Source: a virus. From it: DNA of 64,000 nucleotides. Position 1 is the stretch's first letter. Each line of letters starts with the position of its first letter. The stretch spans positions 14,237 to 78,236 of the IMG/VR virus record IMGVR_UViG_3300037041_000399; one strand, 5' to 3'. Below, in pieces: positions 13,918-45,597 of the stretch. Under the pieces are notes generated by a model. The model did no database searches. It saw only the letters and a program-made list of their open reading frames with translations, and was not told the DNA's origin. Both the position numbers and the translations under genes were made by a program.

Positions 13918-16900
13918 ATGTCAGGTATAGTCATCGAAGTCGAAGCAAAGGTATCCCAAGCAGAGACTTCATTAGAACGATTAAACGATGTAGTACGAAA
14001 TATCACAGCAAGCCTTAAAGCTGTTGATAAAGGATTGGAAAATCTATCACTTAAGAAAGAAGTTCCATTAGACAAAACAGAGAAAGCTTTAAATAATTTA
14101 TCACCTAAAATCGATAAGTTGCAAAGCAGCACTGATAAGTTATTTAAAGGTTCTTCTAATGTAGATAATCGATATTCAAAGGAATTTGTTAATATTGGTG
14201 TATCTGCAGAAATGGCAGGTAAGCGAGTAGAAAAGGCTTTTAATGATATTACATTAAAACCTAACGATGCTGCATTAAAAAGTTTTTCATTTGAAATTGA
14301 TAGAACATCTAGAAAGATATCTAAACAAATGTCAGAAGGTATTTCTAAAAAAGATCTTAGAGATACTGAAAGTAGTCTATTAAACATAAATAAAAGTATT
14401 ACAGGTATTTCAGGTAATATTACAAGTGCCGTTGGTTCTATTGGTACTGCAATTGCCGCTTTTGGCTCTATTGCTACCATTGGAATGTTTGTAAAATCAC
14501 TATCAGATATTACGTCATCTTTTACTGAAATAGAATCTAAGATTGCAATGGTAACAGGGCGTACTGTTGCATTCTCAGAAGCACAACAAGCACTGTTAAA
14601 AGTTGCTGCAGAGACACGTACTACCTATGGAGCTACTGCAGATGCCTTCTCAGGTGTTGGGCGTGCTATGAAAGACGTTGGGGCAACTAGTGAGCAACTG
14701 TTCAGAGTTACTAAGGTATTGCAGCAATCGCAGGCGTTGTCTGGCGGCTCGTCAGAGGGCTTTAAAGCGGCAATGATGCAGTTGAATCAAGGCCTTTCTT
14801 CTGGCGCACTACGGGGCGAAGAACTCAATTCTGTGCTAGAACAGGCACCTGCTATTGCAGACGCACTTGCGCGGTCTTTACACGTTTCTGTAGGCGCATT
14901 AAAAGGAATTGCTGAACAAGGTAAACTAACAACTTCAGTAGTTTTCAGTTCATTGCTAAAGCAAGCCGATTATATTAATGATAAATTCAAAGCTATTAAC
15001 CCAACGCTAGGCAATGCAATGGAAGCTGGCTTTGAAGGTGCTAAACGATTTGCCTTTGAATTAGACAAAGGATTAGGTCTCTCTCAAGATCTTGCAAAAG
15101 CTGTTTCTAAACTAACATCCGGGTTAGGCACAAAAACCAGTGGCATTAGAGTCTTTGCAGCTGACTTTGATGTACAATTAAAAGAAGCAATTATACGTGT
15201 TAAATCGTATATGCAGCCTTTGACACAAGTCGTTACAGCACTGGGGCAAGAATTTTATAGAGTATTTTCTTCTTGGAAAATTCCAGAAGGTTCCCAAAAG
15301 CCTCTAGATGATCTGATACGTAAGTTTACAATATTTAAATTTGTACTTACGCATACAGACCCTGGAACAGATACTAAGATTTTATTTAGAAAAGTAGAAA
15401 CTGCAATTGTAGACAGTGTAAAAACTATCAGTGATTTATTAGATAAGGGGATAAAACTTAGCGATAAGTTTATTATGCCTATTATTGATAAGATTAAAGA
15501 TTTGTATCCTAAAGCCAGAAAAGCGTTATTAACAACCCTAGATGGTCTCAGAAGTGTCATAAAAGAATCAATGTCAGTACTTGCTGACGGCTTTGAAATT
15601 GGTGCTGAATTTGTTAAACCTATTATTAGAGAGTTGACTAAGCTGCCAGATCAGCTAATACTAATTTTTAATAAAGTAGCCAAGGCTTTAGGTAGTGCTG
15701 CTTCTGCTACCAGTTCGCTTGCTGATGGCGTTGCAGATTTATTAGATTCTGTTACCCTTAAAGTAGGTGATTTAGACGGTATTTACGAGTACTTAAATAG
15801 CTTTAAAGATAAAGTAATTACTATCTTCTTTAAAATATGGGATGCAGTTATTGGCCACTCATGGTGGACTGATACAATTGATAGTATTATAGATACTTCC
15901 AAGTCTCTTTGGGAAAAAGCTTCTCCTGGCCTTATACGCTTTAGAGATAGTATAATTGCGTTATTTAAAACTATTGCTAGTACGGTTACTACAGCATTTA
16001 ATGATGCTATGGTTAAGCTTAATATAGAACCTAAATCAGTCTCATTTAAAATACCAATAAGTATAGATGATGCTAAGGTACAATTTGAAGGCGTGTATGA
16101 CAGCTTTGTAAAAACGTTTGATAAATTTAAAGATGATTTCCCTTTACTATTCAAAGCAATAGCAGCAGGCGTTGGTGCGATTCTTGTAGGAATGTTCTTA
16201 CCTTCTGGCAATTTTGTATTATTGCTTGAAGCAGCTTTAATTTCAGCTTCGATTCAAAGTGCTACAATGTTTGCAGAAACAATTGGCAGAGACTTAGGGG
16301 ACGCAAGCCTTTTAGCTGGTTTAGGTAATAACTTAGGTGCTGCAGCTGGAAAGCTCTTTGCATCATTCCTTGCTAATATGCCACTACTTGTTAGCGCATT
16401 CCTTGGCTTTATTAGTGAATTTACAAAAGAATTCTTAAAGCAATTACCTATCATTGGAGTGGCATTTAAAGCTCTCTTCGGAATAGCTGGTGCCTTTGGC
16501 ATGGCAGGGCCTTTAGGTCTTGTAGGTGCTATATTCTTCGGCAGAGGTATATTAGGCATAATGGCAACATTTGGCTTTTATACTGAAGCGATAACGGGCT
16601 TCATGGCAAAAATGGCAATTCTTGGTAACTTCTTTGGAGGCGGTGGCGGGTTAATCTCTAGGTTATTATTTGGAGCAGGTAGAGCTTGGCATTTTCTTCC
16701 TATATTAGGATTAATAGCATCTCTATCAGGTGCTTTTGATGCATTGTATAATGATTCTAGTCTGAGTGCTTTAATCATTAATGGCGGTTTAATCTATTTT
16801 GCAATCTTTGGTAAAGGCGGTTTAGCTGGATTTGCTAAAATAGGTATGTTAGTTCGTGCTAATATTGTAGGCATACTATCAGAGTTTACTGCAACAGCAG

Positions 16901-38240: not shown

Positions 38241-38274
38241 TCTCCGTTCCCCCTATATTATTAATTCTAATAAT

Positions 38275-38304
38275 GCGGAAATAATAGTATCTTATATGAA
38301 GTAC
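38275..38304 (+). promoter_or_regulatory. Second motif class GCGGAAA-N5-GTATCTTATATGAAGTAC, copy 1 (putative early promoter)
   Basis: 25/30 nt identical with 39386-39415, same spacing; 24 nt upstream of ATG 38329. Confidence 0.7.
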
Positions 38305-38328
38305 TATAATAACCTTTGGAGATACATT

Positions 38329-39226: not shown

Positions 39227-39385
39227 GTGAATGGTATAGCTTTATTGAAGCAATGTTAACAATTGGTTTTTATTGTGTTTATGTGTTTTACAATGTGTTT
39301 GCAGAGCATTGCGAAGGACAGCGTAAGTATCGTAAAGTGCGTAGCTGGAATCGTTCAGCTATGCAAAAAGATTATAAATAAAAAC

Positions 39386-39415
39386 GCGGAAAATGGGGTA
39401 TCTTATATGAAGTAC
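39386..39415 (+). promoter_or_regulatory. Second motif class, copy 2
   Basis: GCGGAAAATGGGGTATCTTATATGAAGTAC, 40 nt upstream of ATG 39456. Confidence 0.7.
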
Positions 39416-39455
39416 AATAAGGTACCTCAATCAATTAATTATTTGGAGTATTATC

Positions 39456-39890
39456 ATGAACCTATTGAACACAACAACAGCAACTACAGTAAACAACGTT
39501 AGTATCCGTTTCGCAGACAATGGCACACGTATTGAAATGCGTGGTGAGTTTGCAGCCATCCGCGAAGTAATCGCAAGCAACCCAGGAGTATGCATCGACA
39601 TGGACATGTATCAAGAAGGCCTCGACGAAGTAGTCGGAGGTATCTTCAATCGTGATGCACAACGCATCATCCTTGAGTTGACCTCAATGGGTGTTGAGCT
39701 TGAGAGAGACGGCTACAACACTTTCCGTGAAACAGGCCTAATGAATAACGGCTTTGTTCGCATTCGTGTATCAGAAGTAAATCTTCAGTTGCTAGCTGGA
39801 GAATCAATAGCTCGCCAAACAGCTGTAGCGGATGCAATCGGCGCATCAGTTACAGGCTCAATGCGTGGCTATGTAGTCTCAATGTGGTAA
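39456..39890 (+). CDS. Early hypothetical protein, highly-expressed-type codon usage
   Basis: RBS ttggag; C-ending codon preference (atc, ttc, aac). Confidence 0.65.
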   Translation: MNLLNTTTATTVNNVSIRFADNGTRIEMRGEFAAIREVIASNPGVCIDMDMYQEGLDEVVGGIFNRDAQRIILELTSMGVELERDGYNTFRETGLMNNGFVRIRVSEVNLQLLAGESIARQTAVADAIGASVTGSMRGYVVSMW

Positions 39891-39933
39891 ATGTATAAGA
39901 TAGTGCCAACAACTAACTTTAAAGGTGAACAAC

Positions 39934-40080
39934 ATGAATCCAGTACAAGCAGCACAAGCAGCAGTAGACGCGAAATTATTAGCAATGAAGATCGAACATG
40001 ATGCAAGAATTAAAGCATTAGATGAAGATAAAGAATTCGCTAAAATGCTAGCAGAAATGCAAGCTAAGCTTAAATGCTAA
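39934..40080 (+). CDS. 48-aa coiled-coil early protein (not in ORF track)
   Basis: MNPVQAAQAAVDAKLLAMKIEHDARIKALDEDKEFAKMLAEMQAKLKC; RBS aaggtg. Confidence 0.55.
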   Translation: MNPVQAAQAAVDAKLLAMKIEHDARIKALDEDKEFAKMLAEMQAKLKC

Positions 40081-40084
40081 TAAA

Positions 40085-40112
40085 AGACCTGAGTAGGTCT
40101 CTAAACTGCTTA
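40085..40112 (+). ncRNA. H-type pseudoknot RNA motif, copy 1
   Basis: AGAC-C-TGAGTA-G-GTCT-CTAAAC-TGCTTA; covaries with the copy at 45170. Confidence 0.65.
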
Positions 40113-40167
40113 GTGTCTAAGGGATGTGTATCCCATACTGATGATGGTTCAAAAGAACCGAAACACT
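40112..40167 (+). ncRNA. Type III hammerhead ribozyme
   Basis: GUC cleavage triplet 40115-17; stem I TA-A-GGGAT/ATCCC-A-TA; CUGAUGA 40138-44; stem II GGTTC-AAAA-GAACC; GAAA 40160-63; stem III AGTGT/ACACT. Confidence 0.85.
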
Positions 40168-40187
40168 TAATTATTTGGAGTATTACT

Positions 40188-41298
40188 ATGTTTAACAAAA
40201 TCAAAAATTATTTAAATGGCAACAGAAAAGAAATCGATGAAGCCAGAGAATTCCTTATCACATGGCAAGAAGGCCAAAAAGCTGCTGATGAACTAGTAGC
40301 TAAGTTTGAAGCAAAAGCCTTAGTAATGAAACTTGAAAGATTAGCGAGAGAACGTCATGCTTAATGCTAAAGTGTTGGACTACACTAAAAAGTTCGGGAA
40401 AGAAGTTCTTAATGTTCTTCAAACACCTGTCTTTGAGATTAAAATTGGGGAACCCAAACCTCAAGAACCAACACAAGAAGTTAATGATAAAGCAGATGAA
40501 TTAGCTGCTATGGTCGAACTCTTACAACGAAAATTTAATGGCTTATAAAGGATATTATTATGTTTACTTTTATTTCACACTTGTTCATGTCTCCATTTGA
40601 AATTTTTATGGAAACACTATTAAGCCCAATGGGTTTAATTATGATTGTAACGTTTGCATTAGCCATTGTTGGTTACTTCAAAGTACGTCAAGCCAGAAAG
40701 AATCATGCGCACATTGTTGTTATCAACTTGTGGGAATTGATCTTCTGGGTATCAGTTGTTATAACTTCAGGTTGTAACTTAGTATATGCAATCATGCATC
40801 CTTCAGTCTTTTGGTGATTTATGAAATTAAAATTTGCTTTCTATACATTGCTAACTATTCTAGTAGCAATTACAATGCTGTATGTAGGTGCGCTTCTTTA
40901 CAAAGTAGCGTTGTTGTTAATCGCGGTATTATTACTAATCATCGGATACCAAGTATCTGAATTAACACGGAGATTTACAAATGGCAGCTAACATAAGGCT
41001 TCAAGGTTTCTATCCAGTAGCAACTGAAAAGGTTTTAAATGAAGAAGCTCCTGGGGATCTATTCTTATCTCCTTTAGTGTATAGGCATACCGTGCGTGAA
41101 GTTGATGCAAGTCAGTTAGTTGTAATGGAAGATGTAGAAAAATTCATGTGTGGTTCCGGATGGGACTTCGCAGATGTAGTAGCTGTAGCAGATTTAACAG
41201 GAACAATTCCAATACCATTTTATGTGTTGAAGGAAAAGATTCCAAGGCTTTTAACCTTGGTTAATAGGTACAAACCAAGATTTATAGAAACTGTGTAA
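40188..41298 (+). CDS. Cluster of small early hypothetical genes (40188-40364, 40357-40548, 40560-40817 membrane protein, 40981-41298)
   Basis: Tightly packed ORFs with RBSs; first start reassigned to ATG 40188 (MFNKIK) after ttggag. Confidence 0.55.
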
Positions 41299-41304
41299 AA
41301 CAAA

Positions 41305-41359
41305 CCCTCTCTGGCTCCTTCGGGAGCTGGGGAGGGCTTTCTCTCTTATTTTTTTTTTT
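41305..41359 (+). terminator. Long cUUCGg hairpin with displaced T11 tract
   Basis: CCCTCTCTGGCTCC-TTCG-GGAGCTGGGGAGGG, 12-nt spacer, T11. Confidence 0.75.
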
Positions 41360-45169: not shown

Positions 45170-45197
45170 AAGCCTGGGTATGCTTCTTAACTGCCCA
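45170..45197 (+). ncRNA. H-type pseudoknot RNA motif, copy 2
   Basis: AAGC-C-TGGGTA-T-GCTT-CTTAAC-TGCCCA; same geometry as 40085-40112 with compensatory changes. Confidence 0.65.
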
Positions 45198-45219: not shown

Positions 45220-45597
45220 ATGTTAGGAATGACTCCAACACTATGTCTCGTTGCTGCAATGTACTTCGAGGCTAGAAACCAAACGTCCGATGCCATGTTA
45301 GGTGTCGGTCAAGTATTAATGGAGAATACAGAGAATGGCAAAACTATGTATGACACATTGAAAAAGAAGGGGCTGTTCTCTTGGGCTAGGAAAGGAGTTA
45401 AAATACCTAAACCTAAGAGTCCGGCGGACGTTGAAGTTTTTGAGCATCAGCAGAAGCTGGCGCGAAAAATGCTTTTCAAACAACTTAGAACACCTTTATT
45501 ACGAGGTAAGTATAGGTATTTTAATAATTGGCAACTAGGCAGGCGATTTAAGACTAATGTACCGTTAGTTAGAATTGATGACTTAGTTTTCTATTGA
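45220..45597 (+). CDS. SleB/CwlJ-like cell wall hydrolase (Hydrolase_2)
   Basis: CLVAAMYFEARNQ...GVGQV...FSW...IDDLVFY signature. Confidence 0.75.
   Translation: MLGMTPTLCLVAAMYFEARNQTSDAMLGVGQVLMENTENGKTMYDTLKKKGLFSWARKGVKIPKPKSPADVEVFEHQQKLARKMLFKQLRTPLLRGKYRYFNNWQLGRRFKTNVPLVRIDDLVFY

Follow-up and report, generated by a model that had tools for sequence, protein, structure and literature searches.

A predicted type III hammerhead ribozyme joined to a pseudoknot between two early genes of an uncultured phage

What might a hammerhead ribozyme do in the middle of a phage operon? The question is raised by the 107-nt intergenic gap between two small genes in the analysed window, i.e. the whole stretch of 64,000 nucleotides that corresponds to positions 14,237–78,236 of IMG/VR record IMGVR_UViG_3300037041_000399 (coordinates without a contig name are those of the window, and all features described lie on its plus strand). 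The initial annotation had proposed that a type III hammerhead located there processes the early polycistronic mRNA independently of the host.

The 78-kb record has terminal repeats and represents a complete virus genome, that of an uncultured phage from lake or sediment; all its genes lie on one strand. The presence of a T7-type RNA polymerase, the second of the genome, was confirmed. As judged by RNA polymerase, the closest cultured phage is DSS3_VP1 (Naomviridae), with 33% identity and the same gene order. The Naomviridae roseophages are the closest cultured relatives by both polymerase and gene order, and they are devoid of the ribozyme: no hammerhead was detected in DSS3_VP1, this negative resting on an 18.9-bit match without the core, about 2 kb before the tape-measure gene (the other match scored 15.5 bits). 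An earlier guess based on ORF sizes, that of an N4-like podophage, was dropped, as the gene order matches that of Naomviridae-like long-tailed phages. The T7-type RNA polymerase gene of one relative (54% identity) is split by a group I intron (L021:7500–7734; RF00028, 63.7 bits, above the cut-off).

The gap is bordered by an upstream gene of 48 aa (39934–40080), whose stop codon TAA (40078–40080) ends 4 nt before a pseudoknot described below, and by a downstream gene of 58 aa (40188–40364), with the RBS GGAG at 40177–40180 and the ATG at 40188. Pfam analysis assigned the small flanking proteins to no family, and BLASTN detected no counterpart of region 39600–40700 among 50,697 phage records. 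Two different early genes are preceded by versions, 87% identical, of a 30-nt translation-initiation leader (..TTAATTATTTGGAGTATTA..ATG), at 39429–39458 and 40161–40190.

The predicted type III hammerhead occupies positions 40112–40167, directly upstream of the 58-aa gene. It consists of (i) stem III, AGUGU 40112–40116 paired with ACACU 40163–40167, (ii) stem I, 40118–40125 with 40130–40137 (eight positions including one A.A mismatch, closed by the loop GUGU at 40126–40129), (iii) the core sequence CUGAUGA at 40138–40144, (iv) stem II, GGUUC 40146–40150 with GAACC 40155–40159, closed by the loop AAAA, and (v) the core GAA at 40160–40162. One extra nucleotide, U40145, separates A9 from G10.1, the first nucleotide of stem II. 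All core residues of published hammerheads (PMC3088659) are present in this segment (C3 U4 G5 A6 N7 G8 A9, and G12 A13 A14). The pair A15.1–U16.1 corresponds to A40163–U40116, and position 17 is C40117, in line with the rule that H17 is not G. The other pairs flanking the core are also standard, namely U40118–A40137 (1.1–2.1) and G40146–C40159 (10.1–11.1). Stem III is open, while stems I and II are closed by loops, which is the type III topology, and the covariation reported below agrees with it. Based on hammerhead chemistry and the register of the motif, the scissile bond is predicted between C17 and U1.1 (40117–40118).

Every detail of the initial annotation was recovered at its position: the type III assignment, the core, the three stems, the loops GUGU and AAAA, and the extra U. 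The GUC cleavage site, with the predicted cut after 40117 (C17), agrees with the sequence register; the placement between the 48-aa and 58-aa genes on the gene strand was borne out, and the RBS of gene 40188, said to follow stem III directly, was found as GGAG nine nt behind it. The comparison with the Rfam hammerhead model, which the annotation had named as a check, gave a divided result, in that the RF00008 alignment ran from end to end, but its score of 27.7 bits (E 6.6e-4 on 401 nt, in a permissive scan) remained below the gathering score of 48.5 bits. For this reason the default Rfam scan of the window, run at gathering scores, reported nothing. This failure is a limit of the curated model and not of the hammerhead core.

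The isolated 56 nt were predicted to fold into the three-way junction, with an energy z-score of −1.8, which is not significant by itself. Our own hammerhead descriptor produced exactly one match in the window; in 200 dinucleotide shuffles any descriptor match occurred in 9%, and stems as good as those of the real copy in 0. The evidence from the single sequence is suggestive, and the comparative data are decisive for this element.

Two relatives from IMG/VR (L002 and L003) showed no differences in the 56 nt of the hammerhead (0/56), against a divergence of 16% in the flanking genes; the probability of such invariance is about 5e-5. In the upstream gene, 15 of the 17 differences from L002 fall at third codon positions. 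The analysis was extended to 63 relative loci, gathered by means of a nearby T7-type RNA polymerase and scanned by descriptor and then by covariance model, the first of which (R1) was built from the window copy. Hammerheads were recovered in the early block of 17 contigs among these 63 loci, and represented 12 distinct sequences. In the 12 distinct copies 94.8% of cells were paired, against 31–50% in the slid control, and 13 of the 18 pairs displayed changes on both sides. None of the 12 lineage copies departs from the 13 positions of the catalytic core or from the UH rule of the cut site, while the helices vary freely. The element lies between genes and in their orientation in all 12 copies, 11–24 nt ahead of an ATG preceded by an RBS, with 8 different, unrelated downstream genes behind the ribozyme.

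A second model, R2, rebuilt from the lineage copies, gave no false matches at E<=1 in 831 kb. When applied to whole genomes, it revealed 1–2 hammerheads in each genome searched, all in the early block. The window genome carries a single copy, and L009, L021 and L092 carry two each, 450–540 nt apart. The RF00008 scores of the relatives were 31.6–36.2 bits, all under the curated cut-off. A near-identical copy, L092b, is without the U between A9 and stem II, and the insertion appears, from this alignment, to be a minor variant within the lineage. In the syntenic copy of an 85% relative (L009a, L009:4365–4419) the core is kept, but stem III is broken, with 3 pairs only. Here the 5' strand belongs to one type of stem III and the 3' strand to a different type, and the copy is probably a recombinant, weakened version; therefore, not every copy need be active.

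The pattern of stem I and core characteristic of these elements was found in more than 120 metagenome contigs among the matches listed, originating from lakes, oceans, soils and groundwater. R2 identified 121 hammerheads, 108 of them distinct, in 99 of the listed metagenome loci. Among these matches, the 108 distinct relatives were 96.4% paired (26–45% in the slid control), changes on both sides were observed in 17 of 17 pairs, and all 13 core positions and the UH rule were again retained. The marks of the clade are stem I of the form ..GGAU-GUGU-AUCC.. and loop II RAAA. Loop I GUGU is partnered across the clade by loop II AAAA (31), GAAA (25) and a few others, and this conservation suggests a tertiary contact between the two loops. 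Pairing and conservation thus assign the window copy to a large type III clade from the environment, which, to judge from the sequences compared, lies below the curated Rfam threshold; conservation and covariation place the predicted hammerhead far beyond chance.

Some members of the clade are densely clustered. In L370 (Ga0222713_10047008) the clade is represented seven times in a 3.3-kb locus, where each small gene has roughly one hammerhead, and at least three of the seven are preceded by a near-identical hairpin. In metagenome loci L337–L435, a stable hairpin ends <=6 nt from stem III in about 44% of clade members, often with an A-rich 3' side of the loop, e.g. GGGAAGU..UAAAAACUUCCC. A structured element adjoining the ribozyme therefore seems to be a common design.

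The window copy is itself adjoined by a structured element. A 27-nt H-type pseudoknot (40085–40111) borders stem III without any spacer. Its first stem, S1, is a 5-bp hairpin (40085–40089 with 40096–40100), the second, S2, pairs GAGUA 40091–40095 with UGCUU 40107–40111, and the two are connected by the A-rich linker CUAAAC (40101–40106). A second, ribozyme-free copy of the knot was found at 45170–45196 (S2 GGGUA/UGCCC), after a stop codon and before the ATG at 45220. The knot precedes the hammerhead in 8 distinct relatives, and the distance between knot and stem III is 0–1 nt in all fused copies.

The knot is very widespread in viral contigs (IMG/VR loci L220–L336, e.g. L245, L311, L313 and L243, among the matches listed). 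In 131 distinct IMG/VR knots among these matches, loop position 8 and tail position 26 form A–U in 103, G–C in 26 and G–U in 2 cases, and A–C in none (0/131). The S1 pairs, among the same matches, are 83–98% paired against 13–55% in the slid control, with 4–6 pair types each. The knot also has an invariant U.G pair (C–G in L002), which makes it strand-specific, and it therefore acts at the RNA level. Among the matches listed, knots are usually located behind a stop codon and are followed by a U run in 29%, or else by an RBS, a tRNA gene or a hammerhead. A hammerhead stands behind only 8 of the 108 well-formed copies among these matches, mainly in the lineage whose hairpin is AGACC; a metagenome scan added, among the matches listed, a few further knot–hammerhead fusions with hairpin AGUCC on other contigs. 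Some of the L220–L336 contigs carry the knot directly before tRNA genes. A variant in L434 (2870–2920), in which the loop AAGCA pairs with UGCUU and an extra hairpin precedes the linker UUAAAC, adds covariation to the second stem of the knot.

The 27-nt knot is absent from Rfam. A search of prokaryote genomes with its 16-nt hairpin gave at least 120 matches, and none of those listed has the conserved tail; they are therefore all ascribed to chance and give no clue to the host. Literature searches with the exact motifs of knot and stem I yielded unrelated papers only, and nothing relevant was found that links coremin with bacteriophages.

The closest likeness found for the knot is the coremin motif of plant RNA viruses (xrRNA_C; PMC6546385, PMC10520033), which shares a short first hairpin of 3–5 bp defined by structure rather than by sequence, as is S1. 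Coremin requires a hairpin immediately behind its spacer (PMC6546385), a position held by the ribozyme in the fused copies. In both, the loop starts with a pyrimidine and carries G..A, the tested coremin heptaloop CGAGUAA being very close to CUGAGUAN, and the spacer has a UAAACU core. The coremin consensus (YGAD or YGNNAD plus the 10-nt spacer GUUAAACUAC) is not literally matched: the knot has the 8-nt loop CUGAGUAG, which resembles CGAGUAA, and the spacer-plus-tail CUAAACUGCUU, which shares UAAACU. The phage knot differs further in its Watson–Crick pairing between loop and tail, supported by covariation, in its location after stop codons of DNA phages, and in that, with a ribozyme behind it, it would lie at a 3' end and not at a 5' end. 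To our knowledge, bacteria are without Xrn1.

Folding predictions were made for the whole cassette. When S1 of the knot was imposed, 7 of 8 relatives had the hammerhead as their optimal fold. The nearest-neighbour MFE structure of the window phage and of L085 favours a long hairpin in which the cut site would be buried, as predicted by an algorithm that cannot score the pseudoknot. A switch gated by translation or structure through this alternative hairpin was rejected as a conserved feature, because the hairpin occurs only in these two of the 8 relatives. The predicted 3' product of cleavage has its RBS unpaired in the centroid fold. In the uncut RNA, the MFE structure pairs 40073–40078, at the end of the upstream gene, with 40179–40184, in the RBS spacer, through a weak helix of six pairs predicted for the window sequence; cleavage would then free the RBS of the downstream gene.

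The initial annotation had placed the ribozyme inside an early operon, and the surroundings fit this claim. A promoter-like 42-nt repeat at 39379–39420 (second copy 38268–38309) is the likely transcript start, and a strong intrinsic-terminator-like hairpin with a T run at 41305–41336 the likely end of the operon; as it lies between them, the hammerhead is in mid-operon, within boundaries that are predicted. In two lake metatranscriptome runs, both belonging to one study, seven RNA contigs start at 39400 or 39401, inside the repeat, some with a depth above 140, which is a hint of transcription start and strong early expression in relatives. The RNA contigs over this region, which come from relatives and the same study, stop at 40061 and resume near 40178. 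The resulting gap (40062–40177) is centred on the cut site and compatible with a cut, but was discounted as evidence of cleavage in view of its origin (one study, contigs, relatives). None of the metagenome contigs listed ends exactly at the predicted cleavage site.

Could the motif have arisen by chance, or does it belong to a coding sequence? A frame open from ATG 40074 does run through the ribozyme, in frame, into the 58-aa gene (ORF 40074–40364), and the Rfam score is sub-threshold. However, this ATG has no RBS, the L077 ortholog (with the same N-terminus and the same ATG) has a stop codon between hammerhead and ATG, and half of the 12 relatives have the frame shut within or just past the hammerhead, with no conserved upstream start codon even where it is open. 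The 56 nt are free of the third-position drift seen in the neighbouring genes, and 0/200 shuffles reached equal quality. With the frame not conserved, no drift in comparison with the neighbours and covariation in 108 relatives, we regard this explanation as refuted and leave it a negligible probability; on these sequence comparisons, region 40112–40167 is taken to be non-coding.

The remaining alternatives accept the fold and dispute its role. It is improbable that the hammerhead is kept mainly as the structural partner of the pseudoknot, in the place of the second hairpin of coremin, and cleaves poorly or never. The 0–1 nt between knot and stem III in all fused copies, the need of coremin for a hairpin right behind its spacer (PMC6546385) and the preserved core of L009a, despite its disrupted stem III, would agree with such a role, but a mere structural hairpin would not conserve CUGANGA and GAAA, and the 13 core positions and the UH rule are kept in the 12 copies and in the 108 relatives (among the matches listed) while the helices are free to change; moreover, most knot copies among the matches listed are without a hammerhead. 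We also give little credence to the idea that transcription starts just upstream, the hairpin being a promoter at the DNA level and the ribozyme trimming a short triphosphate leader. The phage does encode its own polymerases, and a hairpin with a conserved tail resembles a recognition element; against this, the pairing in the knot is of RNA type and strand-specific (the invariant U.G, and alternation of G.U with G–C and of A–U with G–C), the knot also precedes U runs and tRNA genes, and the element was counted as unique in the window genome, where the promoter-like repeats lie elsewhere. The pairs of hammerheads 450–540 nt apart in L009, L021 and L092 recall a further possibility, raised by Perreault 2011 (PMC3088659), that an RNA the length of a gene is released by two ribozymes, to be ligated or circularised. 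This seems very improbable for a genome with one copy only, and no spliced or circular products were found in that study.

The explanation that we prefer is that segment 40112–40167 is most probably an active type III hammerhead, belonging to the large clade of such elements from environmental phages, which splits the early polycistronic RNA between cistrons. As the initial annotation proposed, the ribozyme most likely cuts this RNA without host help. The sequence comparisons show the motif and its conservation, covariation in each of the three helices, the strictly intergenic location ahead of an RBS, and the knot; we infer that cleavage takes place, where the operon begins and ends, and how the stability of the RNA is affected. 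The early RNA would be transcribed from the repeat at 39379–39420 toward the terminator at 41305–41336, probably by the T7-type polymerases of the phage; the knot (40085–40111) would fold first and the hammerhead second, and the RNA would then cut itself between C40117 and U40118. The participation of G12 and G8 is the established mechanism of hammerhead cleavage. After the cut, the five-pair stem III would be expected to melt. The upstream message (genes 39456–39890 and 39934–40080) would then end six nt past the knot with a 2',3'-cyclic phosphate, while the downstream message would start with a 5'-OH; what were stems I and II would follow as two hairpins, ahead of an RBS free of structure and the AUG at 40188. 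The outcome would be two independently stable, translatable messages, obtained without a host RNase.

More tentatively, knot and ribozyme may form one cassette that cuts and caps, the widespread coremin-like knot being a nuclease-resistant or terminator-type module of 3' ends. We consider this a possibility of rather low probability. The hammerhead would be docked in register onto the knot and would generate, autocatalytically, a 3' end six nt behind it, a job that the U run would do in other phages. As U runs and hammerheads would both make a 3' end just behind the knot, we favour the knot as cap or terminator and the ribozyme as cutter.

The element can be compared with several known systems. 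Hammerheads of phages and prophages cleave in vitro and in vivo (Perreault 2011, PMC3088659), and their occurrence in phage intergenic regions, which the initial annotation cited as established, is indeed published. Self-processing of phage transcripts into gene-length mRNAs has been proposed for intergenic, clustered hammerheads, and in halovirus HF2 the 5' end of an early transcript lies <=3 nt from the hammerhead cut site (PMC3088659). The window copy shares with that set the canonical core, the intergenic location on the gene strand, and the presence of one or a few copies by small genes; it differs in being of type III with a U after A9, in its fusion, in register, to a conserved knot, and in its residence in the early block of a Naomviridae-like phage with T7-type RNA polymerases. 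With RF00008 (Hammerhead_3, built from viroid, satellite and eukaryotic sequences) it has in common the topology, an identical catalytic core and a full-length alignment, but the seed of that model lacks the clade signature (stem I GGAU-GUGU-AUCC, loop II RAAA), and scores are low.

The inserted nucleotide also has counterparts. The (+) hammerhead of CChMVd has an extra A10 between A9 and G10.1, whose change to U makes cleavage 3–4 fold faster (PMC3705267), and an insertion at the same site is conserved in PLE hammerheads (PMC4209133). These belong to RNA replicons and retroelements, respectively, whereas in the phage lineage the single extra nucleotide (U40145) is a minor variant. By analogy, it may even be beneficial.

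As for the RNase III processing sites of the early region of phage T7, reportedly described by Dunn and Studier, the likeness consists of a cut between cistrons of a polycistronic RNA driven by a polymerase, with an upstream message that has a structured 3' end. The cut in the window RNA would instead be autocatalytic and leave 2',3'-cyclic phosphate and 5'-OH ends. The long irregular double-stranded hairpin of an RNase III site was not found here (the longest helices are 5–8 bp), and the resemblance, drawn by analogy, would be functional only.

Phage intergenic hammerheads, their clustering and the processing hypothesis have been known since 2011, and the window copy is an ordinary use of a known class; less familiar is its fusion with a widespread, uncatalogued knot. 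Phage hammerheads are abundant, and their purpose is still argued from context. The present locus offers a clean test case: the genome is complete and has only one such ribozyme, the operon is probably read by polymerases that the phage encodes, and the hammerhead has a fixed place between a conserved knot and an RBS. The knot itself may be a widespread RNA element of phages that has so far escaped cataloguing. Its fusion with the hammerhead implies that an RNA 3' end forms directly behind it, and thereby offers a way to approach its function.
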